Positions 13,814-43,941 of a stretch of 64,000 nt of DNA are shown here, piece by piece. The notes beneath the pieces are model-generated. The model did not search any database. It saw only the letters and a program-made list of their open reading frames with translations, and had not been told where the DNA came from. How positions within the stretch are numbered: position 1 is the stretch's first letter; every line of letters begins with the position of its first letter. Origin of the DNA: a virus. The translations under genes were made by a program, and so were the position numbers. The stretch lies in IMG/VR virus record IMGVR_UViG_3300043442_000189. One strand, written 5' to 3'.

Positions 13814-16381
13814 TTATCCGTTTTGTGAATATTGTGGTCCTACGTTATATCCGTATGCATTCATATATGCGTCCGCAGCTGCAGTATTTCTTTTAGATTT
13901 ACCTGGTGTACTGGTTGCCATTTCCCAAATTGTTTGACTATCTTCATCAGGCATGATTCCACGCAATTGTCTGAATCTATCGATTTGTGGATCATATCCC
14001 ACATTGCTAGCTACCATTTCATCACCACCAGTAAATGTGGTAAATCCACCACTTATAGGATCAACCATATAATTATCACCATATACAGCATTAAGTGTTT
14101 GTGCTTTAGCTCTATTGGTGATAGCATTTATAAATGATGAGCGTAGTTGTTCTCTTGCTTGTGCTTTAGCATTATCATACTGTTGATTTGCAATAACATT
14201 TGAGTCATACAAATTCTTAGCAATATCTGCATTTGCCATTGCAGTTTGATTAAATATATTTGCTTTAGTCAACTCAAACTGATTAGCTGCACCAACATTA
14301 AGATTGTTATATCTAGATAGAGTATCTGCTGCAGCTTTTGCTGCTTGACCTTGAATCTGAGAAGAACGTGCGTTAAATGCTTGTGCTGGTGCATACGCTG
14401 CAGCACCTTGTGTAGCAATATTTGCTTGCTCACCTATTGTTGCAAGTTCTCTAGTAGGATCGTAGAATGTTGGATTAGGAATATAGGGTGACAACTTAGG
14501 TGACCAAGGTTGGTACTTTTTAATACGTGCCATATCACCAAGTGCTCCTGTTGTAGCAATAATATCCTGTAACCAGAAATCTGCATTTGGATCTTCTTGA
14601 TCAACTTCTAGTTCTTCTGTTGGTACTTCATCAGCTACCTCATCTTGACCTAGATCTTCTTCTGCAATGTTCTCACCGGGAACACCAATGATTTCACCAG
14701 CTGTAGTATTTGTATAAATACCATCGATAGGCGATATCTGTTTGTTTTTACCTGGTTCATCAGCAGCACCAACTTGACCTGGAATAAATCCATCTGCTTC
14801 ACCAGCAAGTGCTAGTTCATTCATTGCACGATAAGTTGCTTGTTGTAATGCAGCATCTGCTGCACCTGGCATTGGTACACCAGCTTCAGCTGCTGCTTTT
14901 TCTAATTCTTCATTAGATACACCTTTTGCAGTATCTGTAGGATTATTAGCAGTCTTTGCAACTTTACCATGATGCACTCCTAAAGCAATGTTACGCTTCT
15001 GCATATCTAAGAACTGTTTTACAACTTGTTCTTTTGTCAATGATTTTTTTAATTCAGCAGGTTTAACTCCCCTAGATGCAAGTGCTTGAGATCTTTGACT
15101 TTCTGGGTTATCAAGTTCCTTTAATGTTGCTTGATAAAGTTTTTCTTGAAGTGCAGGATTAGACATCAACTGATCTTCAATATATTGATACTTACCAGCA
15201 ACATCTTTGTTACCCTTAAATGCTTTATCAGCATCCTTACCTTTATATTCAGGTGCTGTAAATGCTTTACTTACAACTCGGTAACTCTTTCCACTTGCAT
15301 CAGTTGTATAAACGTTTCCTTTATTCTTTGCATCCTTGAAAGCTTTATCACGTGCTTTGCGGTATTCTTCATCTGTTTTATAATCAGATCTCTTAATTAC
15401 CGTAGCACCTTCCGGAATCTTTCTATCAACCTTAATCGTTTTAGTTTGTGTTCCCTTACCTGTAGTTGTTTTTGTAACTCTAGCACCAGGTTTGATAAAC
15501 TCTTGAGGAAGTTGAACATTAGGAGGCAGCGGAGTACCACGACCATCTGTATAGATAACTTCTCCGTTTCTACCAGTCTTCATATAAATACCAGTAGTAG
15601 GATCGAACTGTTGTTGAGAACGTAATCTATTAAGTCTTCTTGCTAAACGATTTTGTCTTCTAACGTTCATACCAAACTGTGCTTCCGGCATAGTCTCCTC
15701 ATCTACAAACTCCTCTTCACTTGGGTTCTCTTCTGCATACATTTCATCTTCATCCATTTCTTCTTGAGGTGTCTCTTGACCCTTTAGAGGTAAAACATCT
15801 TGTGGTTGAATATTATTTGTTGCAAGATATGGTAATGCTACAGTAGGTACTCCACCAGGGAAACCTTTTGTAGACTCTTGATATAAAGCAAGTTTAGCTA
15901 ACTTAAGATTGTAGTTAGCTATCATTTTCTCAGCAGTTTCTTTACTGCGCTTATCCATATCAGGATCAGCTAGAATTTCACGATATTTATTTATATCATA
16001 CTTCTTAGCAATCTGTGCAGGAGTCTTTGGTTTAGTCTCATCAAAGTCAGCAAGTACTTCAGGATCACGGATGATCATACCACGAGTGTCGCTAAAGATA
16101 AACGTATCTTCTGGTAAGTTCAAAGGTGTACCACCTTGTGAATGACGCTTACCACCAATCTTGTAGTGAGCAGGTAATCCGTTTGCATCAGTGATTAAAG
16201 CTGTTTCATTTTTCTCAGCTTCTAAATTCGCTAACTCTCTAGGTACGGGTTGTAATGTATCTCTAACTTGAATAGGTTTCTGACCCATATTGTTAGGCAT
16301 GTACATAGGAGCTAGTTGATTATAACTAACTCCTCCGTCTTTCTTTCGAGGTAAATTTTTTATTTTAACTCTCTTAAGCAT
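13814..16381 (-). CDS. Virion cargo/internal protein, 855 aa
   Basis: Basic N-terminus KRVKIKNLPRK, GKRHSQGG segment, acidic linkers, Ala/Gln-rich helical C-terminus; lies in the cargo block. Confidence 0.6.
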   Translation of the reverse strand: MLKRVKIKNLPRKKDGGVSYNQLAPMYMPNNMGQKPIQVRDTLQPVPRELANLEAEKNETALITDANGLPAHYKIGGKRHSQGGTPLNLPEDTFIFSDTRGMIIRDPEVLADFDETKPKTPAQIAKKYDINKYREILADPDMDKRSKETAEKMIANYNLKLAKLALYQESTKGFPGGVPTVALPYLATNNIQPQDVLPLKGQETPQEEMDEDEMYAEENPSEEEFVDEETMPEAQFGMNVRRQNRLARRLNRLRSQQQFDPTTGIYMKTGRNGEVIYTDGRGTPLPPNVQLPQEFIKPGARVTKTTTGKGTQTKTIKVDRKIPEGATVIKRSDYKTDEEYRKARDKAFKDAKNKGNVYTTDASGKSYRVVSKAFTAPEYKGKDADKAFKGNKDVAGKYQYIEDQLMSNPALQEKLYQATLKELDNPESQRSQALASRGVKPAELKKSLTKEQVVKQFLDMQKRNIALGVHHGKVAKTANNPTDTAKGVSNEELEKAAAEAGVPMPGAADAALQQATYRAMNELALAGEADGFIPGQVGAADEPGKNKQISPIDGIYTNTTAGEIIGVPGENIAEEDLGQDEVADEVPTEELEVDQEDPNADFWLQDIIATTGALGDMARIKKYQPWSPKLSPYIPNPTFYDPTRELATIGEQANIATQGAAAYAPAQAFNARSSQIQGQAAKAAADTLSRYNNLNVGAANQFELTKANIFNQTAMANADIAKNLYDSNVIANQQYDNAKAQAREQLRSSFINAITNRAKAQTLNAVYGDNYMVDPISGGFTTFTGGDEMVASNVGYDPQIDRFRQLRGIMPDEDSQTIWEMATSTPGKSKRNTAAADAYMNAYGYNVGPQYSQNG

Positions 16382-16387
16382 AATTTA

Positions 16388-18715
16388 TTAATCTAAGAAT
16401 TCTACTTGTCCGCCCATAGCAATGATCTCGTCGATCTCTTCTTGAGTAAGATAGTATTCACCACCTTTCTTGTAAGATCCTCCCATTCTTGCATAGGGTG
16501 ATTCAAAGTTATATCCGGTAAATTGTGTAGGAACTTGTTGATCAGGTCTGAAGTAACCTTCATTTGCGGTATAGTCACCTCTAGACATATCCGGCATTTC
16601 TGTAAATACTTGATCAGCTCCCATCTTATTTCTAAACATTTTTTCATTTCTAGAAGCTTCTCTATTCTGCAAACCTGCAGACAATAGATCTAATCCAGCA
16701 CCGATAAATTGTTTAGTATATGGATTTTGTTTTTTACCATACTTAACTTTTAAATTACCTTTTCCTTTTTCACCCATCATTTGAGTAGTATTAGGAACTA
16801 AATCTACAGGAGCAATATTTCCAACATAAGTTGATGCTAAATCTTTTTCACCCATAGAACTATAATCGGGTATTCCATTACTAACTGGAGTATTTAGAGA
16901 TACTGATTCACCTGTTACAGAATCTGTTATTGAATCTGGAATATATTCATTCTCAAAAGTAACAGGACCTGCATCTTGATAATGTTTTAAATATCCACCG
17001 TATTGAAATTCTGGTTCTGTATACTCGTCTCTATTAAATCTATTAGCAATTCTATTATATCTTCGTTCATCACGATTTCTTAAACGCTCCATTCTATCTG
17101 ATATAGGTGCGTCGTAACGCTCATCCAATGACTTTTCTCTCTGCAAATTTCTATCAATACGTTCACCTAAACGAGTTAAACGATCTGTTGCTCTTTGATT
17201 TCTAACATCAGACATATAATTTTTGTCAGAATATCCTTCTGGATTAAATTGACTTTTTCCTATAAGTGGTTCTTTTTCTTCTAGTTTTGGACCCTTTTCA
17301 GGATTCCATCTTTCTTGTTCATCAGGTCTTCCAAATACTCTTTTGAAAAAACCATCTTTCTTTTCTGTCTCAGATTGCTTTTTTCTACCGGGTACATCAC
17401 CTTCCATCTTTCCTGTAGCATTGTCATAGAAAAATGGTTTCTGTTGATTAGCAGATGCTGTAATAGGAGTCATACCGGGACCGTATGTAGTAAAGTCAAA
17501 ACTTGCGCTACGTAAACGTCTTTTTAACGGACCCATCTTAACATCAGCATGAGTTATGAATGTCATATACTGTTGAGGTGACATTCCTAATTGTGCAGCT
17601 TCTTGTTGAACTTGCTGAGGTGTTTTGTTTTCTGGTGCACCTGCTCCTGTTTCTGCTGGAGTTGGTTTAGTGTCTGTACCAGTAGTAGTAGTTATTGTAG
17701 TTGATGCATCCTCAGCTTTTGGTTTCTCTTCTGTTTTACCAGCGGCAGGTGCTTCAGGTTTAGTAGTAGCTTTAGGTTTAGTAGATGTTGCTTTAGGTGC
17801 AGTAGTAGTAGTTGTCTGAGTTCCTCCAATAGGTTGAAAAGGTCTCCAAGGAGCTATTATAGGTTGAGGTACATAACGGGCATAACTATTCTCACCTACA
17901 TAATAATCAGGCATTTCTATAGGAGCATCGCGATCAATAGTTCTAACAGGTCTTTTCTGACCTCTGTTAGTTACTGTAGCTTGTGCAGCACCAGGAATAC
18001 TAAATATCTGAAAAGGATTACCAACTGGTCCTGAAGCTGTTGCAGGTAAATTTCTAAGACGTTCTGCATTCATCATTGCCATATCTCTATTATACTGAGA
18101 AGAACCAAAGTCACCTTGAAATTCTTGTAACTCCATACCATACTGAGCAGTTGGTTTGTAGCGGTACTTCATCTTCTTAATGTAATAGTCATCACCAACA
18201 CTTCCGAAATCTTGAGCAGCTTGTGCAAAATTACCAAAAGCACCCATCACATCACCTTGATCTTCACTAAGATCTGCCCATTGATTTGCTTTATCAAAGT
18301 TGGTTTCGTATCCACCAGACCAACCTCCACCCCATTGCATCATAGCATTATCCATTTCCATAGAAGCTTGATCGTAAGCATCACCCATCATCATACTCTC
18401 ATCTTCCATTTCTTTCTGGAGCGCTTCATACCCTTTCTTTTTAATTCTTTCTAGGAAACTATTAACCTTATTAGGTTTAGGATCTTCGAAAGACATCATG
18501 TTACCACCATCTTGAAATACAAAAGGTGTGTATGGTGTAGGTGCACCATAATTATAGAACTGGTCCATAGTAGGTGCTTGGGGGTATGCTTCACCACCGG
18601 TTTTTTTAACCTTGGGAGCAAATCGTGATGGATTACTATACATAAGAAAGTCTCTTAAATCTATTGAGAGCGGTGAACTTTTTCTACTGCTGTGATTTCT
18701 TTTTTTTCTGTTCAT
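16388..18715 (-). CDS. Virion cargo/internal protein, 775 aa, low complexity, many xQxGG motifs
   Basis: KKTGG, FQDGG, MQWGG, FQYGG, YKKGG motifs; Thr/Pro/Lys-rich linker; cargo block position. Confidence 0.6.
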   Translation of the reverse strand: MNRKKRNHSSRKSSPLSIDLRDFLMYSNPSRFAPKVKKTGGEAYPQAPTMDQFYNYGAPTPYTPFVFQDGGNMMSFEDPKPNKVNSFLERIKKKGYEALQKEMEDESMMMGDAYDQASMEMDNAMMQWGGGWSGGYETNFDKANQWADLSEDQGDVMGAFGNFAQAAQDFGSVGDDYYIKKMKYRYKPTAQYGMELQEFQGDFGSSQYNRDMAMMNAERLRNLPATASGPVGNPFQIFSIPGAAQATVTNRGQKRPVRTIDRDAPIEMPDYYVGENSYARYVPQPIIAPWRPFQPIGGTQTTTTTAPKATSTKPKATTKPEAPAAGKTEEKPKAEDASTTITTTTGTDTKPTPAETGAGAPENKTPQQVQQEAAQLGMSPQQYMTFITHADVKMGPLKRRLRSASFDFTTYGPGMTPITASANQQKPFFYDNATGKMEGDVPGRKKQSETEKKDGFFKRVFGRPDEQERWNPEKGPKLEEKEPLIGKSQFNPEGYSDKNYMSDVRNQRATDRLTRLGERIDRNLQREKSLDERYDAPISDRMERLRNRDERRYNRIANRFNRDEYTEPEFQYGGYLKHYQDAGPVTFENEYIPDSITDSVTGESVSLNTPVSNGIPDYSSMGEKDLASTYVGNIAPVDLVPNTTQMMGEKGKGNLKVKYGKKQNPYTKQFIGAGLDLLSAGLQNREASRNEKMFRNKMGADQVFTEMPDMSRGDYTANEGYFRPDQQVPTQFTGYNFESPYARMGGSYKKGGEYYLTQEEIDEIIAMGGQVEFLD

Positions 18716-18752: not shown

Positions 18753-21700
18753 TTACTGGTTTTTCCTAGGGAGACTCTTGATCTTTACTTTTCTTACAGA
18801 ACCTCCATTCTTTTCTTGCATCAATCCTAACTGACCAATCTGATCATAGAATTTACTATAAGATCCGGGATCATTCATTGTTTTAAATCTTTCCCCTGTA
18901 AGCATGTATCTATCTAATGCTTGGTCTCCTATATACTGACCTGATACTACTGAAGGTACATCGATGTCACCTTCATCACTTCCGTAAGTATATTTATATT
19001 CTGTAGCTCCAGTATCCATACCTAGATTAGGTCTTTGTGGATCTGGAAGAATCTCACCTGTTTCTGGATTTATAGGTTGATTATATTCAGGAAGTAAATA
19101 TATATTTTGTTCTTTTAATGGTAATCCAAATGGCATGTCACCACCTTCTTGCATTCGTACAAGACCACCATCTTTGAATTCATAGGTACCCATATAGATA
19201 CCACCGTCCTGCATTCTAACTTTTTTCTTTACTTTATTCACAGCACCTCTGGTTTTTTTCTCTAATGCTTTCAAACCTCTTTCTATTTTTCTATCCGCAG
19301 CGCGCATGCCTCTTCCTGCATATTTTGTTCCTTCGCGAACAACACTTTCAACATTTTCAACTACTGGAGAAATAGCTTCATCGTAAACAAAAGAAGGATC
19401 TGTCCAATCTGTATAATCATAATGTTCACGATCAGCTCTTTGTTTAGCATCTGTATTCCAATAATTACTCTTTACTTTATTATAATCTACGTCTAAGGAT
19501 GCACTATAATCTTGTACTAAGTTAGCATATGAACCAGCATTCTTATGAAGATTAGCATACTGACCTAATCCAGATTTTAAACTACCGTAGTCTCTTCTCT
19601 TAGTTCCTTTTAACTTACTTTCAGACCATGATGTATCAGTTGTTGCATAATCGTACGCTCTTTCAAGTAAGTTTCTACTTTCTGCTTTACTAATATCAGT
19701 AAACTCATTTTTAAGTACGTTATCTATTCCTTTATTATGAGCAAGTGCTAAGACATTTCTCATTGTAATAGGATCCATGTTATCAAATCCTACACCAAAT
19801 GCCTGTTTAAATCTTTCATAATTTCTTGCAGTTTCTAGGAGTGTGGCAGCAGCAGCGTTCTTTTCATCCCAGATATTTTTATCATCTACACCATACTTTT
19901 GAAGAAGTGCTTTTTCTTTATCTGTATTAAAATTAGTATCTACTTTAATTTGAGTTGGTCCACTACTCATCTCATCACCTTCAAACATCCAGTCAGGTGC
20001 TATATCTTTATACAGTTTTGTAAGTTTTCTATTTTTTCTCTTGCTTGTGTATTTATCACCATGAGAAAATCCAGATTCTTTTCCATACACACCAAATGCT
20101 AACTTCATTATCTCTGATGTCTCATTATCAGATAGTTTGAAATCTTGCTGTACTTGAGGCGCGTAGTATGCTAATCCTTGTACATAGTTGTTTGCTTCTG
20201 TAGACTGAGCGGGTATTACCGCACCATTATCACCTTGCTTAGATGACCACTTTTCACCCTCATGTATCAAGCCTCTTTCTTCATCATCTGCTTTTAAGTA
20301 CCTGGGTTTATCACTTACTTTAACACCAAGAGCATTCTCATCAACTTTGTAATTAGGTCGAACAATACCTGATGCCATGTATTTTCTTTTACCATTAATT
20401 ACATCTTGAAGTTTATCTGTATGCCATGTACCATGTATATTGTGTGTTACATATTTGACACCATCTTTTTCTGTAACAACACCAGAGTGGGTTGTTAGAG
20501 TATTACCTTTTGAATTGGATAGCGCTTCCTCTTGAGAACCTGAGTCCTTGTACCACATTTCAACAACGTCTCCTACTTGAGCATCATTAGTTATTTTTTG
20601 AGCATCAATTTTTCTTTTCTTTTTTTCAGACTCAAGTAAGTTTTTAACTCCTTTATTATCATACTCTGTCGGTGTAATGTCAAGATCATTAGTTAATCCG
20701 TATACGCGAGATCCTCCTTTATCAATTATATTTTGACCAACTTCCCAAGAGTCACCGGTTATACCTAAATCTTTTCTGTTTAACTTATCTCCAAAATTTA
20801 TATCTAATCCTAATTGATATCCTGCAGCACATCTATCCTCTACTTTACCATTGATCATACAAGATGTACCATCATCTCTATAAAGATTTGGTGCATTTTT
20901 TTGTAGGACATAATCGAGTTTTTCTACTGTACCTTCTGTTAAAGCTTGGGTTTCTGCTTCTATAGGATTATAGGGTACATCACTTATCTCTCCCATAATA
21001 CTTTGAGAAGGTACCGTTTCCATAAATGCTTGTTTGGTACCATCTGGGAGCTCTATTACACCTCTCTTACTTCCATAATAAAATTGATCAGGATTCAATG
21101 TATCCGCTGGAATACTATAGTCAGGATTTTTAATCTCGTAAGCATACTTGTCTTCAGTCTCTAAAGGTTGAAAACCTTGATCAACTGCTAGTCCACTTTG
21201 CGTATACTGGGGTATATCTGTAACTTTAATATTCTTTTGCTGAACTTGTTCGGGTAAAGAATTATCTAAAGCTTTATTATGAAGAGTCGATGATGTATCA
21301 GCAATTTGTTCATTAAATACAGTACTATCTTCTTCACTAAAGATTGGAGTTTGTGTAGAGTCTTGAGAAGTTTCAGTTCTTGCTTTCTTATTAGTAAAGT
21401 CTCGGTATGCTTTTTCTGTTTTAGGACCCCACACACCATCAACACCATCTTTACTCTTACCAGACTTACCCAAATCATAACCAGCATTCTTAAGTTCTTT
21501 CTGTAGAGATAGAACTTTACTTTTATCTATATTAGTTCTTCTAAAGTTTGTTTGTATACCCTCTGATGCTTTAACTAGACCCCCGTCTTTAAATTCATAT
21601 TTACCTAGGTATATACCACCTTGTTTATACGTATCTTCTTCAAACGCTTGTTGACTGTCCCAGTTTAAGTCACGCATGTATACATTTCCATCAATACCAA

Positions 21701-22757
21701 TAAGAGGTACATATGTATCATCCCCAAGTGGAGTTTTATCTACAGCATAATTAAATGTAGGATGAGTCGGTGCTTTTAAAATTTTACCAGTTTCAGGGTG
21801 TCTGCTGAATGCGTGGTAGTAACCATCTTCTTGAGTAGGTTGAGAATAATCAAATTCTTCCGGTCTACCGGATGCATCCCAATAACCTCTTATATCATAC
21901 ATGCTGTCATCAGCTCTTAAATTATCAGGAAGTGTTTGAAAAAACTTTTTAAATTGTTTTTCCTCTTCTGCAGATAATTTAGTTTTAAAATTACTACCAC
22001 CTTCTTGATACTTCTTTTTTGTATTTTTAGGTACAAATACTGGTTGATTAGTAGATTCAGAAACTGCAAATCTATCTAAAGATTGTCTAGGAGTTTCTAA
22101 TGGTTGATAATGATTTACTGGAGGTTCCAGTAATATCTTGTTTAACTCTCTACCTACAGGAGTAGCTGATACTACACTCATTGCTGTTCCAATCGTTTGA
22201 GTGGCGCGATGTGGAATTAATTGTAATGTATTACCTACATATCCTATTGGGTTTTTATTTATAACATCACTTATTGCTCCTGCAGCAGATAATTGTCTAC
22301 TTATAGATGGATTTAATGCTCCTATTGCTTCTAACATTAATTGATTTATATCCCATCCTTCATTATTTGCTTTTTCTAATGCTTCATTTATTGGAGTATT
22401 AGGATCATAATTTGGAGGAATATACCCTGATACTGATAACATTGGAATACATCTTTTTTGTTCTTCGGACCAAATGTATCCAGTAGGACAAGAATTTACT
22501 TTACCTCCAGTTTCTTTTTTAATTTTACCCTTTTGATACTTACCCATAGGTATCTCAGTAACATAATCACCTGGAAACGAATACTCTCCACCAGGCATCA
22601 TTGTTTGTTTGTTACCTAGATTGTCTATACCAACTATAGGGAACGGAACTTCTTTCATAGTAATCTGGTTACTAGGAATGATGTTCATGTCATTGTGTCT
22701 GTCTGGACTATCTGGTAAATATCCGGTCTTGGTAATTTTTACTTTACGCTTCTTCAT
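18753..22757 (-). CDS. Virion-associated multidomain peptidoglycan hydrolase (PG-binding + NlpC/P60/CHAP-like peptidase + lytic transglycosylase-like)
   Basis: PG_binding_1-like LQKELKNAGYDLG..DGVDGVWGPKTEKAY; Cys (DRCAAG), GDVV, HSGVV, THN; SLT-like KESGF, GPTQI, LAHNKG. Confidence 0.75.
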   Translation of the reverse strand: MKKRKVKITKTGYLPDSPDRHNDMNIIPSNQITMKEVPFPIVGIDNLGNKQTMMPGGEYSFPGDYVTEIPMGKYQKGKIKKETGGKVNSCPTGYIWSEEQKRCIPMLSVSGYIPPNYDPNTPINEALEKANNEGWDINQLMLEAIGALNPSISRQLSAAGAISDVINKNPIGYVGNTLQLIPHRATQTIGTAMSVVSATPVGRELNKILLEPPVNHYQPLETPRQSLDRFAVSESTNQPVFVPKNTKKKYQEGGSNFKTKLSAEEEKQFKKFFQTLPDNLRADDSMYDIRGYWDASGRPEEFDYSQPTQEDGYYHAFSRHPETGKILKAPTHPTFNYAVDKTPLGDDTYVPLIGIDGNVYMRDLNWDSQQAFEEDTYKQGGIYLGKYEFKDGGLVKASEGIQTNFRRTNIDKSKVLSLQKELKNAGYDLGKSGKSKDGVDGVWGPKTEKAYRDFTNKKARTETSQDSTQTPIFSEEDSTVFNEQIADTSSTLHNKALDNSLPEQVQQKNIKVTDIPQYTQSGLAVDQGFQPLETEDKYAYEIKNPDYSIPADTLNPDQFYYGSKRGVIELPDGTKQAFMETVPSQSIMGEISDVPYNPIEAETQALTEGTVEKLDYVLQKNAPNLYRDDGTSCMINGKVEDRCAAGYQLGLDINFGDKLNRKDLGITGDSWEVGQNIIDKGGSRVYGLTNDLDITPTEYDNKGVKNLLESEKKKRKIDAQKITNDAQVGDVVEMWYKDSGSQEEALSNSKGNTLTTHSGVVTEKDGVKYVTHNIHGTWHTDKLQDVINGKRKYMASGIVRPNYKVDENALGVKVSDKPRYLKADDEERGLIHEGEKWSSKQGDNGAVIPAQSTEANNYVQGLAYYAPQVQQDFKLSDNETSEIMKLAFGVYGKESGFSHGDKYTSKRKNRKLTKLYKDIAPDWMFEGDEMSSGPTQIKVDTNFNTDKEKALLQKYGVDDKNIWDEKNAAAATLLETARNYERFKQAFGVGFDNMDPITMRNVLALAHNKGIDNVLKNEFTDISKAESRNLLERAYDYATTDTSWSESKLKGTKRRDYGSLKSGLGQYANLHKNAGSYANLVQDYSASLDVDYNKVKSNYWNTDAKQRADREHYDYTDWTDPSFVYDEAISPVVENVESVVREGTKYAGRGMRAADRKIERGLKALEKKTRGAVNKVKKKVRMQDGGIYMGTYEFKDGGLVRMQEGGDMPFGLPLKEQNIYLLPEYNQPINPETGEILPDPQRPNLGMDTGATEYKYTYGSDEGDIDVPSVVSGQYIGDQALDRYMLTGERFKTMNDPGSYSKFYDQIGQLGLMQEKNGGSVRKVKIKSLPRKNQ
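19140..19214 (-). repeat. Second copy of a triple-GG linker block within the 1334-aa gene (first copy about 21558-21629)
   Basis: MQDGGIYMGTYEFKDGGLVRMQEGG vs YKQGGIYLGKYEFKDGGLVKASEG. Confidence 0.75.
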
Positions 22758-25700
22758 TATCTAGGAGAGTATTGATTCTTCACATTAGTTATCTTGAACA
22801 ACATTTTGATTGGTCCTGATATATTACGATATAACAAGACGTGAGTAGTATAGTGTCTAAACTTCTTTCTTTCAAATGCTGACTTCTGATAATCTAGGTT
22901 GTTTATATTTAGTTGCCTCTTGTAACCGTTTAGTTCGGTGCTCCATATGGATTGCTGAACATTAGGAAAGGTGAATTCTCCGCGATCTCTAGTTATATCC
23001 CAGAACTGATTCATTCTATATTTCTGTTCTTCTTTACTATACAGAATATCAATACTAGTGGGATTAATTATAGGATACTGTAGCGCAGCTATTGGATTAC
23101 CTTTCGGATTCAGATTTAGATTTAATACACCTGATACTTGTTCTGTATTGTGTACAACAGCATGATCAAAGTTAAAATCAAGCACATGATACATATCAAT
23201 ACCATCAACATCGTAAGTATAACACTCTAAATCATACTCTAATGACTTTAGTGTGTTTACTATCTGTCCTGTTGCAGCAATGTATTCAATTTCAAATGGG
23301 TAGTCAACACCATAGAAGTTAGAAAATAAATCTGTTCTATCGTTATGTCTCCAGATACCACCTTCACCAGCAGCATTAGTTTTAGTTGTCAAGAAATAAT
23401 TTTTACTTGATACAGCTAACTCAGGATGCCAATCGTGGAAAGATATCCACATTTGATTTTTTGGATCATAACTAATAGTCCAACTACAATCTTCAAAGTA
23501 TGCAGGATCACCAAGTTGAACTTCAATAGAATTATTAACTAAGAAAGTATTATATCCTTTTTGAGGAGCATATACCACAGTATCTGTAATATCTCTTCTC
23601 TTTCTAAAATCTCGTTTAGAAAAATACAGTATCATATTACTATTATCAAATACTGATTGGCATCCAATACCCACAATAGGATTATCCGTATATATGTAAT
23701 CAGGAAAATCTAAGGTAAGCTGATATGGTAAATATTTATTAAACCACCAGCGCATACTTGCTGCTGATATTTCATCTAAACCTTGTCCGGTTACAGCAAA
23801 AACTTTACCCTGAGATTGACTAACATAAAAAGCACCAACTGGAGTATTTGTAATAGACAATCTATTCTGACAAGATCCATGTTGGAACTCTGAGTCAGCA
23901 TTAGTTAAGTACTGTAAAGGTTGTGAAAATAATCCACCATCACCTATAGTTATCTTAGTACCAGCATCTGTTTGTAAAGTATCCACCCCTAAAAACTGCG
24001 CAGGTCCCTGTGTTTCAAATAGTATCAAAGCTCCATTTTTAGAAATGGGTTTAACAGCTATTACTCTAGATGTAAAGTCTTTGTAATTATTTGGTAAGAA
24101 TACTTGCCAAAAGTCATTGACTGCTTCATCTTGTTGTGGTAATGAATATATAATTCTATTAGGATAATATGTGTAACAAGTTTCTGCAACCATTGGGTTA
24201 TAGTATCTTGCTTGCATTGATCCCCAAGATACAAAGTTGTTAAAGATTCTAGACACACTTAAAGATAAGTCATATTTAAAATAGTTACCAGATTTGATTA
24301 CATCTGTTCCAAATAGTTCTTTTAAATTAGTAAATCTATAAGGATCGTAATGTCTTTCAGCTATGCTATTTCCCCAGTCTCTTAAGTCTACATTAATTTC
24401 AGACTCTACAAAAAAGTCACGAACACCAGATTGAAATAAGTAAAAGTATACATCTTTTTTAGATAACTTAAATGCACTACCTATAGCACTAAGACCCTGA
24501 CCAAAAAATCCTTCACTATCTGTAAACGGATCAAGATCTAAATTATGCATATCATTAGGTAGCGCATCAAATAATTGACCTATTTGAAATCCTACTATTG
24601 AGCTTATGAACTTACTTACAAATAAGTTTGTATCAAACTTTGTAAAATCTGCCCAGAATCTAGGATTAGATACCATACTTCTAAGTCTATAATCAAACTC
24701 AGTTCCATCAGGTTGATCCATCAACCAATCATAGAAATAGAAAAATGTATTCTTTTCTGTATATCTTCCTATATACACATCTCCTCCAAATACTATAGAA
24801 GAATCTGGCATTAAAACAGATGTGTCTGTAGAGGTATTTGTGATGGGAACTTTAGTTACGCAACCTGTAGTAAGTTGTCTTATCGTAGGTAATTGTCCAT
24901 ACTGATTACGCAATCTTACTTTTAATCCAGCATAATAACTATAGCTACTAGTTTGAAACTCTTCAAATCTTCTTTTTTCGTTTTGTAATCTAGGTTCAAT
25001 ATTTCTAGCAGTACTAAGAACTTGTGTTGAGTTATCTATACCAACCGTAGCACTTATAGGATTCGAGGTATTTAATGTTACACAACGTCCTCTGAATATA
25101 TTATTTATCGTAATATTTTCAAAGTTCTGAAGTTGATTTTCTAAATACCCTGAAGCTTTTATATATCTTCTAGAATTACCTATAGTTAAAGCTCCTTTAG
25201 TGTGTCTTAATAAAGAACCGTGGGATATGTATTTTAAAGCATATTGTCTATACTTTGTAAACTTTAAAATTAAATCAATAAATCTATCGGTACCATCAAC
25301 AACATAATTAATATACATAAACGCACCTGTAACAGCTCTGATTGCAGTTGGCATAGATCCAAATTCACTATACTCATAAGTAGTTACCTGAGTTGATCCT
25401 ATACCACCTGTTGTAGGTGTTACTGTTGTAGCAGGTACTAAAAGAGCACTATCTGTACCTGTAAAACCCGCATCTAGATATATACTTAAAGCACTATCTC
25501 CAGCAGGGTTAAAAAGGGTTCCGATTACGTTAGCTAATGTCCATTCAGCTTGATCATATGCATTTTGTGCAAATGGTAAAGCTGCGTTATTAACAGCATT
25601 ACCCGCCGAAATTATAGGACCGCTTACAGGACCAGCTATTAAACCAGATATACCAGCATTAAATATTTGTGCTGGTTTATATTCTTTTATTTCTTTACCT

Positions 25701-27865
25701 CTAATTGCTTGACTCGCTATAGAAATACCACCTACTGCAGCTAGTACAAATGCTAAGTCTGTTGGTAATTTATGTTTAGGATGCTTATCAATAGGTTCAA
25801 AATTACCAGTAACATTATTAGGACTACCTACTTCTCCATATAATTTTAATTCTTGTGCAGAAAGAAAAGGATTTTTAAATTGTGTATCAGGAGAATGAAA
25901 GGTAAACAAACTATCTGAAACATTATTTAAAAAGTTGTTAGAGTCATTCCAACCTGAATCGTCTATCCATGATATAGATGTTAATGAAGGGTCGGGTTGT
26001 CTAGAATTATATGGGTAGTTTTGATAATAAATATTTTCATTATCTACGTTTCTATATGAACGCATGTTGTTAATGATACCCTTTGCTATGACAGTTTTGT
26101 TTCCTTCTCTAGAACTTCTTAAAATTTCATATCCCACAATACCCGGTATTGCCATACCATAGTTATCAACAGGACATTTTATATTTTTAAATTGTACACC
26201 TAATACGCGAATAGCTACAGGTTTTAATCCATTAACGCGAATTCTAGAAAAACCATCTACACCTGAAGGAAGATCTAATGATACATTTAGAACATCCGCA
26301 GGCATTTTGTGATGACGAATAGGTTTACCACAAAGATCATAACTATCATTTCCAGGATCTGACCAACTGTGTGCTGACGCATTCCATATGTCAGGTCTAT
26401 CATTAGGATAATTCTCAGTGGATTCCCAATACCCCATTTTACCAGTAGCAATAACAGCACCACCAACAAATGGAGCAGATTCTTGTAAAGCCACACTGTT
26501 TGTATATGCAGTATTAATACTTTCCCAAATTGCAGGTGCTACATAAGGACCCCCTTGATCAAGATGTTGTTGATATTCTACGTTATCAAAAGTACCAGTT
26601 GCAAGTGATGCTATATCAGTACCATCAGGATTTAATTCTCTTCCTATTTCTTTTGCTCTACCTGGAATATGATACGAACTTGATCTTTCTCCTGTGTTAT
26701 ATACCCATCTGATCCAGAATGCATATTGTTCATCGCGCATGTATCCTGTATCATTTCCTCCTCTCTTATAGTAATCAGGAGACTGTTCAACCATAACCCA
26801 CTCAGTATTAATCTGATTAGCTAAAGGTTGATAGTTGAAATCAAATTTAGTACGGGGTCCTGTTCGTAGCATATACGGACCGTTCACATACAAACCATCT
26901 GACTTTTCATAAGCAGGTGATCTTAACGGAATTACTTCAATAGGTACACTAGGTAAACTCTCATCTATGTAATCTATAGATATAGATACTGGTCCTTTTG
27001 TATTATATAATCCTATTCTTTTAGCGCTTGTTTGTTGATTAATAGTTCTTACAATGACTAATTCAAATTCATCAAATGTTTTTGAATCTAGATTTTTTAT
27101 TGTAACTTCTAATGATCCTGATAAGTTATCATGATCAAATAGTGCTTGAACTTCACTAGGTGTATAATAATCTGAATATCTCTGACCATTAATAGTATAC
27201 GCTACCACAGCATAATAAGATCCATTTTGTAAAGCACCGCCTGCCGCTCCTTTACTAATTGTAACACATGGTATAGTGATTAATTTAGCAAGTCTTATTT
27301 CTTCACAATCTAACTGATATGGTGGTTTAGGTTGACAATCAACGCAATCTCTATCAGGATTAATGTCTTCACAAAAGTATGGTACACCCGGCCATGGTTG
27401 ATCGAACGGTCCTAATCTAATATCACCAATGTTCATGGTTCTGTCAGGATTTAAACCATCTATCCAATACAACTGATAAGAACAATCAAAGTTCTCTTTT
27501 GCTGTACCAATAATAAGATTTGACTTTTTAAAGTTTAGACAAGGATCGTTTACTACAGTAGTGTAAGTACACGAATCTTCTTTAAATAATCCAATTTCAG
27601 AATTTACATCATCAGTAGAGTATACTGCCCAATAGTCACTTGTAACTCGTACCTGACCGATAATAGTATATGGTGCATTTGTACACAACTTGTTTGCGGG
27701 TTCGTTACCAATGATACCTACGTCTCCACCAGCTGTATTATTTGTAGCATTGCGCGCATGCGACCACGTACCTTCTGGATAAAAGATATCATCAAAGTCT
27801 TTAATAAGACCTTTATTAAAGATTTCTGATTCTTGACTATTCGCTGAATCTTGCTGCTTCGCCAT
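22757..27865 (-). CDS. Tail muzzle / tail stabilization protein
   Basis: 1702 aa beta-rich protein; N-terminus FNKGLIKDFDD..WSHARNA; position right after ring proteins as in crAss-like phages. Confidence 0.7.
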   Translation of the reverse strand: MAKQQDSANSQESEIFNKGLIKDFDDIFYPEGTWSHARNATNNTAGGDVGIIGNEPANKLCTNAPYTIIGQVRVTSDYWAVYSTDDVNSEIGLFKEDSCTYTTVVNDPCLNFKKSNLIIGTAKENFDCSYQLYWIDGLNPDRTMNIGDIRLGPFDQPWPGVPYFCEDINPDRDCVDCQPKPPYQLDCEEIRLAKLITIPCVTISKGAAGGALQNGSYYAVVAYTINGQRYSDYYTPSEVQALFDHDNLSGSLEVTIKNLDSKTFDEFELVIVRTINQQTSAKRIGLYNTKGPVSISIDYIDESLPSVPIEVIPLRSPAYEKSDGLYVNGPYMLRTGPRTKFDFNYQPLANQINTEWVMVEQSPDYYKRGGNDTGYMRDEQYAFWIRWVYNTGERSSSYHIPGRAKEIGRELNPDGTDIASLATGTFDNVEYQQHLDQGGPYVAPAIWESINTAYTNSVALQESAPFVGGAVIATGKMGYWESTENYPNDRPDIWNASAHSWSDPGNDSYDLCGKPIRHHKMPADVLNVSLDLPSGVDGFSRIRVNGLKPVAIRVLGVQFKNIKCPVDNYGMAIPGIVGYEILRSSREGNKTVIAKGIINNMRSYRNVDNENIYYQNYPYNSRQPDPSLTSISWIDDSGWNDSNNFLNNVSDSLFTFHSPDTQFKNPFLSAQELKLYGEVGSPNNVTGNFEPIDKHPKHKLPTDLAFVLAAVGGISIASQAIRGKEIKEYKPAQIFNAGISGLIAGPVSGPIISAGNAVNNAALPFAQNAYDQAEWTLANVIGTLFNPAGDSALSIYLDAGFTGTDSALLVPATTVTPTTGGIGSTQVTTYEYSEFGSMPTAIRAVTGAFMYINYVVDGTDRFIDLILKFTKYRQYALKYISHGSLLRHTKGALTIGNSRRYIKASGYLENQLQNFENITINNIFRGRCVTLNTSNPISATVGIDNSTQVLSTARNIEPRLQNEKRRFEEFQTSSYSYYAGLKVRLRNQYGQLPTIRQLTTGCVTKVPITNTSTDTSVLMPDSSIVFGGDVYIGRYTEKNTFFYFYDWLMDQPDGTEFDYRLRSMVSNPRFWADFTKFDTNLFVSKFISSIVGFQIGQLFDALPNDMHNLDLDPFTDSEGFFGQGLSAIGSAFKLSKKDVYFYLFQSGVRDFFVESEINVDLRDWGNSIAERHYDPYRFTNLKELFGTDVIKSGNYFKYDLSLSVSRIFNNFVSWGSMQARYYNPMVAETCYTYYPNRIIYSLPQQDEAVNDFWQVFLPNNYKDFTSRVIAVKPISKNGALILFETQGPAQFLGVDTLQTDAGTKITIGDGGLFSQPLQYLTNADSEFQHGSCQNRLSITNTPVGAFYVSQSQGKVFAVTGQGLDEISAASMRWWFNKYLPYQLTLDFPDYIYTDNPIVGIGCQSVFDNSNMILYFSKRDFRKRRDITDTVVYAPQKGYNTFLVNNSIEVQLGDPAYFEDCSWTISYDPKNQMWISFHDWHPELAVSSKNYFLTTKTNAAGEGGIWRHNDRTDLFSNFYGVDYPFEIEYIAATGQIVNTLKSLEYDLECYTYDVDGIDMYHVLDFNFDHAVVHNTEQVSGVLNLNLNPKGNPIAALQYPIINPTSIDILYSKEEQKYRMNQFWDITRDRGEFTFPNVQQSIWSTELNGYKRQLNINNLDYQKSAFERKKFRHYTTHVLLYRNISGPIKMLFKITNVKNQYSPR

Positions 27866-38633: not shown

Positions 38634-39341
38634 TTAACTATTTTCTTGTACTGATTGTTGAGATACTTGATACTGTGTCATGTATTCAATATCTCCTGAT
38701 AAGATGTTTACAGCTGCATCTACAAGGATCTCCGTAATATCATCTTTAAATTCACAAAGTACATCTGCTGTAGATTGTACTGTTGTATAAGGATCGACAC
38801 AGTTAATAAGCTGTACAAATACAGGGAGTCTATAATACATAAGTTTTACTTCATGTAAACTAAACTCTCCATTTGTATAGATTCTTATTTTATTACCTAC
38901 TAGTGTACAGAAAGTTTCACCCCATTCAAAACTGGGTTTCTTTAGTTCATCTGACAAAAGCAAAGGAACATTCTCTTCTTCTGCTAAGTAAGTAATTGTC
39001 ATTGCCATAGGATTATCACAACAATCTTTTTGACCGTGACCATTAATACGTTTAAAGTATAAATAGTTTGTAGGTAATTCCTGTGTCTCCATATACAAAC
39101 CTTTGTTTGTAAGAGTCATAGGAACTTCTATCAACAATCTTTGTAGATCGTCAATACGCATTTTGGTTTGCTCATCACCTGTCTTGGTAAGATTAACACC
39201 CTGCACTTGACGACGCACCCACTCTACTTGAGCTTTATTAAAAGCTTCAACGATTTGCCAGCACTGCAAGTTATCATAGTCTAAACTATCTAACTTGTTT
39301 AGACGCTGCTTAATCTTTAATTGTAGAGTAAGATTATTCAT
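38634..39341 (-). CDS. Head-tail connector / ring protein
   Basis: 235 aa; FNKAQ.EWV and Y.RLP..V..C.F..DITEILVD.AV pattern of crAss-type ring proteins; downstream of MCP. Confidence 0.55.
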   Translation of the reverse strand: MNNLTLQLKIKQRLNKLDSLDYDNLQCWQIVEAFNKAQVEWVRRQVQGVNLTKTGDEQTKMRIDDLQRLLIEVPMTLTNKGLYMETQELPTNYLYFKRINGHGQKDCCDNPMAMTITYLAEEENVPLLLSDELKKPSFEWGETFCTLVGNKIRIYTNGEFSLHEVKLMYYRLPVFVQLINCVDPYTTVQSTADVLCEFKDDITEILVDAAVNILSGDIEYMTQYQVSQQSVQENS

Positions 39342-39631
39342 TATCCTTTAACGCGTTTTAATCTTGGATTTGCTTTTTTAGCAGCGGGTGATGCTTTACG
39401 AGAAGAAGATGCAAGAATAGCTGATGCTGCTTCTTTTGATACACCTTGCTTCTTAGCAATACTAGCAGCTACTGCTTTAAAACCAGGATGCGCTTGACCA
39501 CCCTTTTTAAATACACCACGTCCTTTTAGAACGTCTGCTTTTGTAACTTTACCGTCTCCAGTTAAGTCCGGAAAAGATCCACCAGATTTCATCTTCATGG
39601 ATCCTCCACATTTCATACATTTTTTTGCCAT
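39341..39631 (-). CDS. Small basic protein with EF-hand/dockerin-like loop and GG motifs
   Basis: MKCGG, MKSGG, FKKGG; DLTGDGKVTKAD loop; Lys/Ala-rich. Confidence 0.7.
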   Translation of the reverse strand: MAKKCMKCGGSMKMKSGGSFPDLTGDGKVTKADVLKGRGVFKKGGQAHPGFKAVAASIAKKQGVSKEAASAILASSSRKASPAAKKANPRLKRVKG

Positions 39632-39642
39632 AGTTATTTAGT

Positions 39643-40235: not shown

Positions 40236-40438
40236 TATTTTTTAGTTTTACGATTTGTTGTAGATTTTACCATACCACCTAACATCATTAGTTGTTCTTG
40301 AGTAGCTTTACGAACCTTACCTAAAAGTGCTTTATCTTTCTGTAGGTCGTTATATCTGCGTATAGTATCCATAGCAGATTCTACTTTCCAGCGTTCTTCA
40401 CGCATCTTGTCTTCTTTAGACATTTTGATTTGTGCCAT
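40235..40438 (-). CDS. Small basic helical protein, 67 aa (start corrected to ATG at 40438)
   Basis: MAQIKMSKEDKMREERW...; the track's 103-aa version overlaps the upstream gene, whereas ATG 40438 follows that gene's stop (40440) directly. Confidence 0.65.
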   Translation of the reverse strand: MAQIKMSKEDKMREERWKVESAMDTIRRYNDLQKDKALLGKVRKATQEQLMMLGGMVKSTTNRKTKK

Positions 40439-40439
40439 A

Positions 40440-40709
40440 TTATCTGAAGTTTTTAGATTTTTGTTTTGCTGATTTTGGTTGAGGTACAAACTGTTTACCA
40501 GATTTGTTACCTTTTGCTTTAGCAGCATTAGTAGCAGCTTTCTCACCAGGAGTTAAAGCATCCCACGCAGCTTTAGGTAAGTATCTTTTTTTACCTTTAG
40601 ATTGAACCTCTTTAGAAGATCCTTTCTTAGTGTTTGCATGAGTACCTGAAGTCATCCATTTTTGATCACTCCAATTCTTTAAACTCTGTTGTGATTTAGC
40701 TAGCGCCAT
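40440..40709 (-). CDS. Small basic phage protein (DUF5872-like from memory, unverified)
   Basis: SQQSLKNWSDQKWMT..KRYLPKAAW..FVPQPK. Confidence 0.65.
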   Translation of the reverse strand: MALAKSQQSLKNWSDQKWMTSGTHANTKKGSSKEVQSKGKKRYLPKAAWDALTPGEKAATNAAKAKGNKSGKQFVPQPKSAKQKSKNFR

Positions 40710-40894: not shown

Positions 40895-40897
40895 ACT

Positions 40898-41920: not shown

Positions 41921-41955
41921 AATTTTGTTGGTTTTTTATGTTTGACAAATATAGT

Positions 41956-41983: not shown

Positions 41984-42001
41984 GTTTTACATTTATAAAG
42001 A

Positions 42002-43639: not shown

Positions 43640-43662
43640 TTTTTATTTATTAATTAAAAGGG

Positions 43663-43941
43663 TTATTTTTTCTTCATCGATCCACCTTTCTTAAAAGGTG
43701 AAATTGCTTTCATTACTTTTTTTACGTCTTTCTTCATACCTCTGTATGTAGAACTTTTATCTAGCTTATCGTCAATTGCTTTAGCACCTGCATAAGCGCT
43801 TTTACCAGCACTCTTTGCTCCCTTAATTATCATATCCTCTCCTTTCTTTACAATCGTGCTCGGTCTTGCTACACCGGGTACATATCCGGATCCACTAGAT
43901 TTTTTTGCTGGTGTCTTACCACCTTTTTGCATTTTTTTCAT
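43663..43941 (-). CDS. Small basic protein with GG motifs at both ends
   Basis: MKKMQKGG...FKKGGSMKKK; lies between scaffold and MCP. Confidence 0.7.
   Translation of the reverse strand: MKKMQKGGKTPAKKSSGSGYVPGVARPSTIVKKGEDMIIKGAKSAGKSAYAGAKAIDDKLDKSSTYRGMKKDVKKVMKAISPFKKGGSMKKK

Follow-up and report, generated by a model that had tools for sequence, protein, structure and literature searches.

A Gly-Gly motif shared by predicted cargo proteins of a divergent crAss-like phage and its possible role as an uncleaved docking and hinge tag

Introduction

Crassviruses are among the most abundant human gut viruses and are environmentally widespread, and a PhiCrAss001 particle could, by estimate, hold as much as ∼5.5 MDa of protein for injection. 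A 64,000-nucleotide stretch of viral DNA (IMG/VR record IMGVR_UViG_3300043442_000189; hereafter the window) raises the question of why six of its predicted proteins, three large and three small and basic, share a short signal, [MYFK]-[QK]-x-G-G. The original prediction, made from the window's letters, held that the signal is a tag for either head maturation cleavage or docking in the capsid interior.

Results

Judged by gene content and order, the window represents the structural module of a crAss-like phage that is divergent. The order tested was TerL, portal, scaffold-like protein, MCP, ring/hub proteins, muzzle, cargo and giant RNAP-related proteins, and the window displays this Crassvirales-type virion module with its cargo genes. 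TerL, portal, MCP and a muzzle-like protein have PHROG matches, the portal is 23–33% identical to those of crAss-like, Cellulophaga and Flavobacterium phages, and gp33-, gp40- and gp43-like genes are present in the order seen in PhiCrAss001. The muzzle gene adjoins the gp43-like gene (301 aa), lying directly after it, and both the N and the C terminus of the muzzle are kept in relatives. Genes for the 1334-, 775- and 855-aa proteins come after the muzzle gene, the slot held by the cargo genes gp45/gp46 in PhiCrAss001. The three large proteins are assigned to the cargo class, and their presence in the virion of this uncultured metagenomic phage is suggested by synteny. The genes concerned are:

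13814..16381, minus strand: cargo protein, 855 aa, with 1399 database homologues for its N-terminal 200 residues
16388..18715, minus strand: cargo protein, 775 aa, with five strict motif copies plus RMGG and AMGG
18753..22757, minus strand: modular cargo protein, 1334 aa, with six strict motif copies
22757..27865, minus strand: muzzle-like protein, 1702 aa (PHROG virion structural protein, 1e-50)
26756-26770, minus strand: the single motif copy of the muzzle, YKRGG (residue 366)
39341..39631, minus strand: basic protein, 96 aa
39894..40235, minus strand: basic protein, 113 aa
43663..43941, minus strand: basic protein, 92 aa, between the scaffold-like and MCP genes
43945..45189, minus strand: scaffold-like acidic protein, 414 aa, between portal and MCP (21% D+E, basic C terminus)

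About 20 copies in six proteins had been listed from the sequence, and every one was found among 21 strict matches to [MYFK][QK]xGG (855 aa, 2; 775 aa, 5; 1334 aa, 6; 96 aa, 3; 113 aa, 3; 92 aa, 2); the KETGG and EKNGG variants of the 1334-aa protein are present beside its six strict copies. Residue shuffles of the six proteins (n = 5000) gave a mean of 0.82 matches and a maximum of 5, so the motif is more frequent than composition predicts. The remaining 38 ORFs (17.5 kaa) contain three matches versus 1.40 expected. TerL, portal, the 414-aa scaffold-like protein, MCP and fibre-like proteins have none, and the description of the motif as essentially absent from other structural proteins stands with a single copy in the muzzle. 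Isolated GG dipeptides are preceded by [MYFK][QK] at −3/−2 at 20/32 sites in the six proteins versus 3/75 elsewhere (Fisher P = 1e-10), and GG pairs spaced 5–12 residues apart number 9 versus 2.4 expected (P = 0.0002). Proteins carry up to eight copies, located at both termini and internally, and the wider family has a looser form in which an aromatic residue lies 1–3 positions ahead of GG. A second terminal tag, [KR]VKI[KT]xLP, accompanies the motif and is always separated from the protein body by GG.

Conservation was assessed in three diverged complete relatives (G002, G003 and G005), whose syntenic proteins gave 6, 5 and 4 matches to the pre-set pattern versus ∼0.67 expected in each, an enrichment of 6–9 fold. 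Across 36 homologues of the 775-aa protein, conservation is 90% or more at every motif site, and the C-terminal tail of this protein is invariant in the genome of the window (G000), the three relatives and 32 database homologues. The pattern recurs in relatives at both aligned and nonhomologous positions. From these comparisons, the shared tag is genuine and extends across the lineage, on a specific class of proteins predicted to be virion-internal or ejected; a literature search found no published description of the GG motif. Three points would suit an origin by chance or as a side effect of composition, of internal duplication or of a repeat at the DNA level: the pattern was chosen post hoc, K and G abound in the six proteins, and some copies are internal duplicates (the 113-aa tail and the two cassettes of the 1334-aa protein). 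Against this, the shuffles never exceeded 5 versus 21 observed, and relatives replicate the pattern at aligned and nonhomologous positions alike. Codons at motif sites also differ synonymously, which indicates a signal acting at the protein level, and the two duplicated cassettes are just 61% identical in DNA, with synonymous changes. A DNA-repeat origin is ruled out by these codon differences, and for chance or by-product origins as a whole we see scarcely any probability.

Copies of the motif had been placed at termini or in linkers between domains, and AlphaFold2 bears this out with one exception, putting the sites of the 775-aa protein and the KKDGG of the 855-aa protein in disordered segments but YKIGG (residues 73–77 of the 855-aa protein) in a folded domain. 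The sites in these two proteins, and in a fourth protein at a cargo position (1063 aa), are:

13361..13396, minus strand: KKCGG-KYWD-GG double-GG cassette of the 1063-aa protein
16151..16165, minus strand: YKIGG of the 855-aa protein, within a folded beta-hairpin, not a linker
16331..16381, minus strand: N-terminal tag M-L-K-R-V-K-I-K-N-L-P plus KKDGG of the 855-aa protein, a disordered leader
16391..16495, minus strand: conserved C-terminal tail of the 775-aa protein (RMGG, SYKKGG, AMGG-QVEFLD)
16994..17008, minus strand: FQYGG of the 775-aa protein
18326..18340, minus strand: MQWGG of the 775-aa protein
18503..18607, minus strand: proline-rich conserved leader of the 775-aa protein, KKTGG to FQDGG

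Residues 1–40 of the 855-aa protein are predicted to be disordered (pLDDT ∼50), and the N-terminal tag and GG are kept in all family members listed from the 1399 database homologues. The strand holding YKIGG (69–75) is modeled at pLDDT >90, and the motif is here part of a conserved Y-x-I-x-G-x-R-H-x-x-G-G block. Most of the 775-aa protein is predicted to be disordered (mean pLDDT 43.5), with all five sites in segments of pLDDT <50. The 1063-aa cassette is kept as C-GG-x-[YW]W-x-GG in 4/4 genomes. Leaderless homologues beginning MAYGG were considered as an argument for docking and rejected: the DNA of one locus has an upstream ATG giving M-R-T-V-R-I-T-R-V-P-N-M-A-Y-G-G, and the MAYGG starts are thus gene-calling artefacts.

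The 1334-aa protein consists of a leader, two variable modules, a peptidoglycan (PG)-binding domain with a conserved hydrolase-like core, a C-terminal module and a tag, and the motif marks the joints:

18756..18818, minus strand: C-terminal EKNGG, then basic tag RKVKIKSLP
19140..19214, minus strand: double/triple-GG cassette 2, MQDGG ... FKDGG ... MQEGG, directly after the conserved core
21570..21629, minus strand: double-GG cassette 1, YKQGG, an eight-residue aromatic stretch and FKDGG, directly before the PG-binding domain
21996..22010, minus strand: YQEGG, joint of variable modules A and B
22503..22517, minus strand: KETGG, end of the conserved leader, where deletions in homologues P0156 and P0157 start

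Homologues of this protein span 753–2118 aa, with modules gained or lost at the motif, and indels of 170–600 aa among homologues 72–97% identical to one another have both boundaries at a motif. Cassettes of type 1 also flank inserts in P0157, P0158 and P0159, and cassette 2 is partly kept in G003 and G005. Residues 397–465 match PG_binding_1/endolysin; in another homologue LysM replaces PG_binding_1, and either domain starts just past a motif. The insert of P0158 matches ART-PolyVal (2e-8). Such module swapping is reminiscent of polyvalent proteins, which are large, delivered with DNA and equipped with swappable effector modules (Iyer et al. 2017, PMC5512222); the 1334-aa family is likewise multi-module, has variable conflict-type domains in a putative virion or injection setting and in P0158 carries ART-PolyVal, but differs in that MPTase (PF18818) is absent from all four genomes. 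The description of polyvalent proteins defines their domains and proposes MPTase autoprocessing, with no joint motif described (PMC5512222).

The small basic proteins carry the motif near their ends or before a conserved domain:

39497-39511, minus strand: FKKGG of the 96-aa protein, directly before a conserved PGFKAV domain
39578-39616, minus strand: MKCGG-SMK-MKSGG of the 96-aa protein
39897-39950, minus strand: C-terminal YKKGG-SVK-KQGG-SVKKKK of the 113-aa protein
40200-40214, minus strand: KQNGG of the 113-aa protein

In relatives, N-terminal extensions of 0–330 aa on the 96-aa protein are packed with the motif. The 113-aa protein resembles residues 797–880 of a 936-aa cargo protein of G003 (E = 0.001), and the 92-aa protein, in which MQKGG forms residues 4–8 and FKKGG lies six residues short of the C terminus, resembles residues 1130–1178 of the 1334-aa protein (E = 0.006). 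The 92-aa gene was discarded as a conserved member of the module, as a survey of this gap in 61 relatives having both flanking genes found a comparable small basic ORF in one (G003). A SET-domain methyltransferase was similarly dismissed as reader or writer of the K position; a homologue occurs in 1/81 related loci, and Q alternates with K.

Were the motif a signal for maturation cleavage, a protease of phage or host origin that has escaped recognition would cut after Gly-Gly in the head or after injection; leaders and tails would be trimmed and modules freed from cargo resembling a polyprotein, much as adenain processes the core precursors of adenovirus. Sites that bracket the small basic proteins and divide the modules of the large ones are consistent with cutting, a pattern shared with adenovirus pVII, pX and pVI, as are the GG that always divides terminal tag from body and the lone PGFKAV domain of some relatives, which starts exactly where the motif ends in others. 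The core of the 1334-aa protein moreover has invariant Cys174, His288 and His303 (D-E-C-A-A-G ... T-H-x-G ... T-H-N; alignment A5), possibly reminiscent of NlpC/P60 papain-like peptidases, with a putative SLT-like active site suggested as well, and autoprocessing has been proposed for polyvalent proteins (PMC5512222). However, this core is missing in G002 and G005, yet the motif is present there. NlpC/P60 and CHAP Pfam models gave no score on the 1334-aa protein, a PDB profile search with its core (A5) returned nothing significant, and Atlas look-alikes scored <0.9 and are treated as leads only. No protease had been recognisable in the window from its sequence, no peptidase family scored in the window ORFs scanned (Pfam, PHROGs), and a search of G000 and the three complete relatives for nine protease families (Pfam) also yielded none: neither G000 nor these relatives have Peptidase_C48, C5, C39, S78, S77, ClpP, MPTase-PolyVal or NlpC/P60, and CHAP appears as one sub-threshold match in a non-cargo ORF of G005. 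Cuts 4–8 residues from chain ends, or at tandem sites 6–8 residues apart, would have no obvious use, and PhiCrAss001 virion gel bands of ∼150, 270 and >300 kDa would fit intact RNAP-related proteins by predicted size. We consider a cleavage code unlikely.

Known systems with related signals were compared. Adenain (MEROPS C5) cuts core and cement precursors at (M/I/L)xGG|x; in the present motif, too, a hydrophobic residue shortly precedes Gly-Gly, and sites fall close to both ends of small, basic proteins associated with DNA as well as within larger internal ones. In contrast to adenain sites, the motif has its hydrophobic residue one position off, and there is no clan CE protease, C5/C48 (PF00770, PF02902) being absent from all four genomes. 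The T4 internal proteins IPI–III and Alt each carry a single N-terminal capsid-targeting peptide that is removed at L/I-x-E by the S77 protease gp21. In both cases a short shared terminal peptide would mark otherwise unrelated proteins to be packed into the head and injected afterwards, whereas here copies are many, lie at both ends and internally and have GG chemistry, and an S77/S78 prohead protease (PF03420, PF04586) is absent from G000, G002, G003 and G005. Cargo-loading peptides of encapsulins are single and C terminal and bind the shell protein; being short, glycine-containing, terminal and uncleaved, and tethering diverse cargo inside an HK97-fold shell, they resemble the motif, but tag binding is here only putative, and shell-bound peptide density is not reported for PhiCrAss001. 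The double-glycine leader/C39 export system does not apply: C39 peptidase (PF03412) is absent, and the leaders are basic and proline-containing, not amphipathic helices, whereas C39-type leaders are amphipathic, 15–30 aa long and end in GG.

The closest structural point of reference is gp45, cargo protein C1 of PhiCrAss001 (PDB 7QOG, 7QOI, 7QOJ, 7QOL and 8CKB; Bayfield et al. 2023, PMC10172136), which is located in capsid and tail and presumed to be ejected first, and N-terminal-region peptides of which are detected in virions (PMC10172136). Its gene, like the cargo genes here, sits after the muzzle gene, and in the protein x-x-GG comes after a basic N-terminal tag, the C terminus carries GG-GG-polyK, and there are 21 GG dipeptides and many aromatic-GG sites; the register differs, being mostly A-[YF]-G-G in gp45 and [YFM]-[KQ]-x-G-G here. 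The ordered docking segments of gp45 are a portal-bound segment (425–552) and a tail-barrel helix (214–245; PMC10172136). The former starts at A425-F-G-G428, the latter four residues after A-Y-G-G210, and the cryo-EM model of the portal-bound segment is unbroken through GG 427–428, 434–435 and 447–448 (PMC10172136); a chain modeled uncut through three GG sites argues against cleavage. The motif goes unmentioned in the published work (PMC10172136), and the SDS-PAGE and MALDI supplement on PhiCrAss001 yielded no band assignment for gp45. Between gp45 and the window proteins there was no BLASTP match, and neither sequence nor fold homology of gp45 to the 855-, 775- and 1334-aa proteins was detectable. 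The model of the 855-aa N-domain, searched with Foldseek (PDB) and VIA-align wide, returned generic helical hairpins only, and a PDB profile search with the 855-aa family (A1) returned nothing significant; none of these recovered gp45. The top hhalign match paired FIFSD...TPAQIAKKY of the 855-aa N-domain with gp45 480–512 (E = 0.41); with no fold match, homology of this N-domain to the portal-binding domain of gp45 is at most putative, a point that counts against the docking reading. The PhiCrAss001 argument also leans on a distant relative and a domain-internal site.

Discussion

With regard to the original alternatives, the existence of a specific shared tag is upheld, and docking fits the data better than cleavage does. 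We put about an even chance on the motif being an uncut docking and hinge tag of modular cargo. The element would be short, linear and uncleaved (a hydrophobic or aromatic residue, K/Q, x, G-G), often paired 5–12 residues apart, and would mark termini and module joints in the "beads-on-a-string" ejection proteins of this crAss-like lineage and likewise in its small virion-associated proteins, which are rich in lysine. Gly-Gly would supply a flexible hinge, while the aromatic/Met and K/Q side chains would form a small anchor seating each module on repeated internal surfaces of the particle, of which the portal wing, tail-barrel rings, muzzle or, transiently, the acidic scaffold are candidates. 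Many unrelated modules could thus be loaded, kept extended and released in order via the tail, with the extreme-terminal basic tag [KR]VKI[KT]xLP as the leading or trailing chain end. Because every module would bear the same joint, modules could be inserted, lost or become free small proteins with loading kept. Placement at module boundaries is, as an observation, equally expected of a polyprotein cleavage code.

As for the surface that might be bound, extra peptide density on the MCP interior is not reported in the 3.0-Å PhiCrAss001 capsid map (PMC10172136), which makes a persistent capsid-wall receptor unlikely. The 414-aa scaffold-like protein is a candidate transient receptor for the basic tags; co-folding it with residues 1–45 of the 855-aa protein gave a score of 0.00, which is evidence neither way.

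Another explanation dispenses with a dedicated receptor: the motif would be a structural or physicochemical element that combines a favoured beta-turn or hairpin (strand, K/Q-x-G-G turn, strand) with a point of flexibility, so that cargo stays soluble and extended and can be threaded through portal and tail; in its lysine-rich setting it might contact packaged DNA. YKIGG is predicted to be part of a beta-hairpin within a folded domain; the cassette of GG, eight aromatic-rich residues, KDGG and LV resembles a hairpin; the 775-aa protein is predicted to be largely disordered; and the motif occurs amid K-rich low-complexity tails. In gp45, residues 246–424, with four GG sites, must span the portal tunnel. 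A hinge alone, however, leaves unexplained the aromatic/Met and K/Q preference at fixed offsets, the at least 90% conservation of 5–6-residue blocks in fast-evolving disordered regions and the restriction to the cargo class, the context being found at 3/75 GG sites elsewhere, glycine-rich virion proteins included. We regard this explanation as unlikely.

A broader form of the docking and hinge reading, which we advance tentatively and with more doubt than belief, is that the motif and [KR]VKI[KT]xLP constitute a universal portable loading and ordering code of crAss-like phages, such that modules bracketed by it are loaded and injected and the small basic proteins are free-standing modules; possibly an undiscovered GG-specific protease reads the same code and frees modules after injection. 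Such a conserved code at cargo termini and joints would account for the free swapping of modules in cargo proteins, would make cargo selection, portal-spanning arrangement and ordered release directly testable and would provide a sequence rule by which cargo and ejected effectors (e.g., anti-defence ART-PolyVal) could be recognised in genomes of uncultured phages. Tandem copies at chain ends, as in YKKGG-SVK-KQGG-SVKKKK of the 113-aa protein and in the three C-terminal MY[NK]KGG repeats of a 295-aa protein of G002, fit avidity, and do not fit cutting.

Genomic setting of the predicted cargo genes

The window comprises bases 21546–85545 of the 91.5-kb virus record G000, which is ∼76% complete; relatives with direct terminal repeats are 110–120 kb. 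All long ORFs of the window lie on the minus strand, and PHROG and Pfam scans placed the following landmarks:

48044–50254, minus, TerL
45292–48042, minus, portal (916 aa)
42002–43639, minus, MCP
22757–27865, minus, 1702-aa "virion structural" protein

The portal is 23–33% identical to those of crAss-like gut phages, Cellulophaga and Flavobacterium crAss-like phages, and Leptolyngbya phage Lbo-JY46. Direct comparison with PhiCrAss001 gave weak matches in the same order between gp33, gp40, and gp43 and the 337-, 222-, and 301-aa proteins, therefore placing the 1702-aa protein in the muzzle position. The 1334-, 775-, 855-, and 1063-aa genes are placed as the cargo genes gp45/gp46 are in PhiCrAss001 (cargo being proteins presumably packed in the particle and ejected), ahead of giant 3029-, 3514-, and 2103-aa proteins. 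A 120,685-bp contig is recorded as encoding an identical copy of the 775-aa protein, and the full genome of this phage is therefore probably public.

Several other genes were observed. A 947-aa protein (33102–35945, minus) with BNR/sortilin-type beta-propeller repeats and a VWA domain is probably a tail or receptor-binding component. The 3029-aa protein (1519–10608, minus) has a weak exonuclease PHROG match (6.5e-5) at residues 1417–1688, and a free 273-aa PD-(D/E)XK nuclease (52552–53373, minus) lies upstream of the packaging genes. At 51565–51942 (minus) is a stand-alone SET-domain protein of 125 aa (Pfam SET, 1e-11), which is a putative lysine methyltransferase. Among 81 related loci, just one has a homologue of it; the phage encoding it has many lysine-rich virion proteins. 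At 40235–40709 (minus), a 103-aa ORF (GTG start) and an 89-aa ORF overlap by ∼100 nt in different frames. A confident PHROG match (2e-24) belongs to the 89-aa ORF alone, which makes the start of the 103-aa ORF doubtful.

Enrichment and conservation of a GG motif

The copies of [MYFK][QK]xGG listed in the original prediction were all found in the proteins named. The motif matches 21 times in six proteins of 855, 775, 1334, 96, 113, and 92 aa (3265 aa), as compared to a mean of 0.82 and a maximum of 5 in residue shuffles of these proteins (n = 5000), and the remaining 38 ORFs (17.5 kaa) contain three strict matches versus 1.4 expected. Isolated GG dipeptides carry the upstream context in 20 of 32 cases in the six proteins versus 3 of 75 elsewhere (Fisher P = 1e-10). 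Even allowing generously for post hoc choice of pattern, the excess is not chance, and an artefact is scarcely credible. Codons at the motif sites show synonymous variation, and DNA identity between the longest two of the repeated cassettes is only 61%; therefore the constraint is on the peptide. GG dipeptides also pair at spacings of 5–12 residues (9 versus 2.4 expected; P = 0.0002), forming cassettes (e.g., GG, IY-x-G-x-YEF, KDGG, LV), one of which lies on either side of the PG-binding domain and conserved core of the 1334-aa protein.

The pattern, unchanged, replicated in the syntenic cargo trio of all three complete, diverged relatives (portal 70–74% identical, cargo proteins 20–40%).

Strict motif matches in the cargo trio of relatives
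Relative; observed; expected; P
G003; 6; 0.68; 8e-5
G002; 5; 0.66; 6e-4
G005; 4; 0.67; 5e-3

Taken together, the GG contexts in these trios follow a looser rule, an aromatic residue or Met one to three positions before GG. In the 775-aa family (alignment of n = 36 sequences, identity down to 20%), the five strict sites, RMGG745, and AMGG768 are each at least 90% conserved, flanks included, within blocks such as P-F-V-F-Q-[DN]-G-G and S-Y-K-K-G-G-E-Y-Y-L. No published description of the motif was found in the literature searched, and it is not mentioned in the crassvirus structural paper (PMC10172136) or the polyvalent-protein paper (PMC5512222).

Motif copies at module boundaries and chain ends

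Close homologues of the 1334-aa protein (core 72–97% identical) vary by whole modules, the ends of which fall at the motif.

Module differences among database homologues of the 1334-aa protein
P0156; lacks residues 78–248, KETGG to YQEGG
P0157; lacks residues 78–379, the leader's YQNGG being joined straight to the cassette
P0158; different insert, with an ART-PolyVal domain
P0159; 600-aa insert with a cassette at each end
P0160; GG-WL-x-KY-Q-x-GG cassettes, and LysM in place of the PG_binding_1 of this phage

In P0158 (80% identical in the core), the inserted ADP-ribosyltransferase domain (residues 343–422) follows the leader and precedes the first double-GG cassette. The family thus has the behavior of a polyvalent protein that is injected and whose effector modules can be exchanged. 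Alignment of the conserved core (residues ∼470–1130 of the 1334-aa protein; 18753–22757, minus) revealed invariant Cys174, His288, and His303 (alignment numbering) and an E-S-G ... Q-I-K ... A-H-N-K-G pattern, which suggests NlpC/P60-like and SLT-like cell-wall hydrolase motifs; these gave no scoring match with Pfam models or in a PDB profile search. G002 and G005 do not share the core, which rules it out as a general protease for the motif.

In the 96-aa family, a conserved C-terminal PGFKAV domain follows 0–330 hypervariable, motif-packed residues, and three relatives encode a protein that begins right at the end of the motif. The 92- and 113-aa proteins are similar to cargo-protein segments that end at a motif (E = 0.006 and 0.001, respectively), and the gap between the two genes flanking the 92-aa gene lacks a comparable ORF in 60 of 61 relatives examined. 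The free 96-aa protein (39341–39631, minus) has C-x-x-C-GG-S-x-x-K-x-GG ... PGFKA in common with residues 305–325 of a 936-aa protein of G003 (E = 0.08, a short match). A DUF6321 protein (83 aa; 39643–39894, minus; 4e-21) is another small head-module protein found fused elsewhere, DUF6321 in PHROGs being the C terminus of far longer phage proteins, up to 928 aa.

The N terminus of the 855-aa family reads M-x-[KR]-[KR]-[VI]-[KR]-[IV]-[KT]-x-[LV]-P, then two to four residues, then GG, in four of four genomes and among the matches listed from 1399 database homologues. The same basic tag ends the 1334-aa protein (EKNGG then RKVKIKSLP) and is present at both termini of a 940-aa protein of G003; a pattern scan of the four genomes yielded essentially no further convincing copies. 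Whether N- or C-terminal, the tag forms the extreme end of the chain and is separated from the protein body by GG. Six public gene calls in the 855-aa family (P0062, P0067, P0088, P0090, P0097, and P0101) begin at an internal Met (MAYGG...). DNA at one database locus (L110:2968–3000) places the true start 11 codons upstream of the called Met, restoring the tag, and a ∼40-nt gap precedes the gene in three of three contigs checked with such calls.

Predicted structures bear out in part the proposed placement of motif copies at termini or in linkers. AlphaFold2 modeling of residues 1–200 of the 855-aa protein (81-sequence alignment, mean pLDDT 84.7) predicted a disordered leader (1–40) containing the tag and KKDGG, followed by a confident domain (41–200). 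The 775-aa protein is mostly low confidence (mean pLDDT 43.5), each motif site lying in a helix-flanking segment with pLDDT <50. In contrast, YKIGG (73–77) of the 855-aa protein is within a beta-hairpin of the confident domain, so some copies are not linkers.

Docking versus cleavage

As originally predicted, no protease was recognizable in the window by Pfam and PHROG scans of its proteins. Peptidase_C48, C5, C39, S78, S77, ClpP, MPTase-PolyVal, and NlpC/P60 had no match in G000 or the three complete relatives; the same search gave a single sub-threshold CHAP match, in a non-cargo 188-aa ORF of G005.

The strongest outside evidence is from PhiCrAss001, whose gp45 has a comparable layout, with a basic tag then F-D-T-G-G at the N terminus, Y-T-G-G ... 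A-K-G-G ... and a polyK tail at the C terminus, and 21 GG dipeptides in total. In the cryo-EM work (PMC10172136; PDB entries confirmed), gp45 residues 425–552 form one portal-bound modeled chain that starts A-F-G-G and spans two more GG sites, residues 214–245, modeled in the tail barrel, begin four residues after A-Y-G-G, and peptides 79–101 and 181–190 were found in virions. The model is continuous through its GG sites, which therefore are uncut, and the motif stands at, or shortly before, the start of both ordered docking segments. There is at best a hint that the 855-aa N-domain and the gp45 portal-binding domain are homologous, and fold searches with the former gave no support for it.

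The original prediction had left cleavage and docking side by side, and docking is now the likelier. A cleavage code of the polyprotein kind would account equally well for motif copies at module boundaries, for variants with the domain alone, and for the terminal tags set off by GG, but is unlikely given the absence of the tested protease families and the intact gp45 sites. We give a similarly small chance to a receptor-less turn, hinge, or DNA-contact element. The motif is similar in kind to the cargo-targeting T4 CTS and encapsulin loading peptides and to the viral adenain GG processing sites, but it departs from all three in those of their defining tests that could be run, chiefly in that a matching protease is absent. 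The most likely reading, at about even odds, is an uncut hinge-plus-anchor tag, by which cargo modules would be seated on inner surfaces of the virion and strung together, and which would tolerate module swapping. Tandem motif copies sit a few residues from chain ends, an arrangement that suits avidity better than proteolysis.
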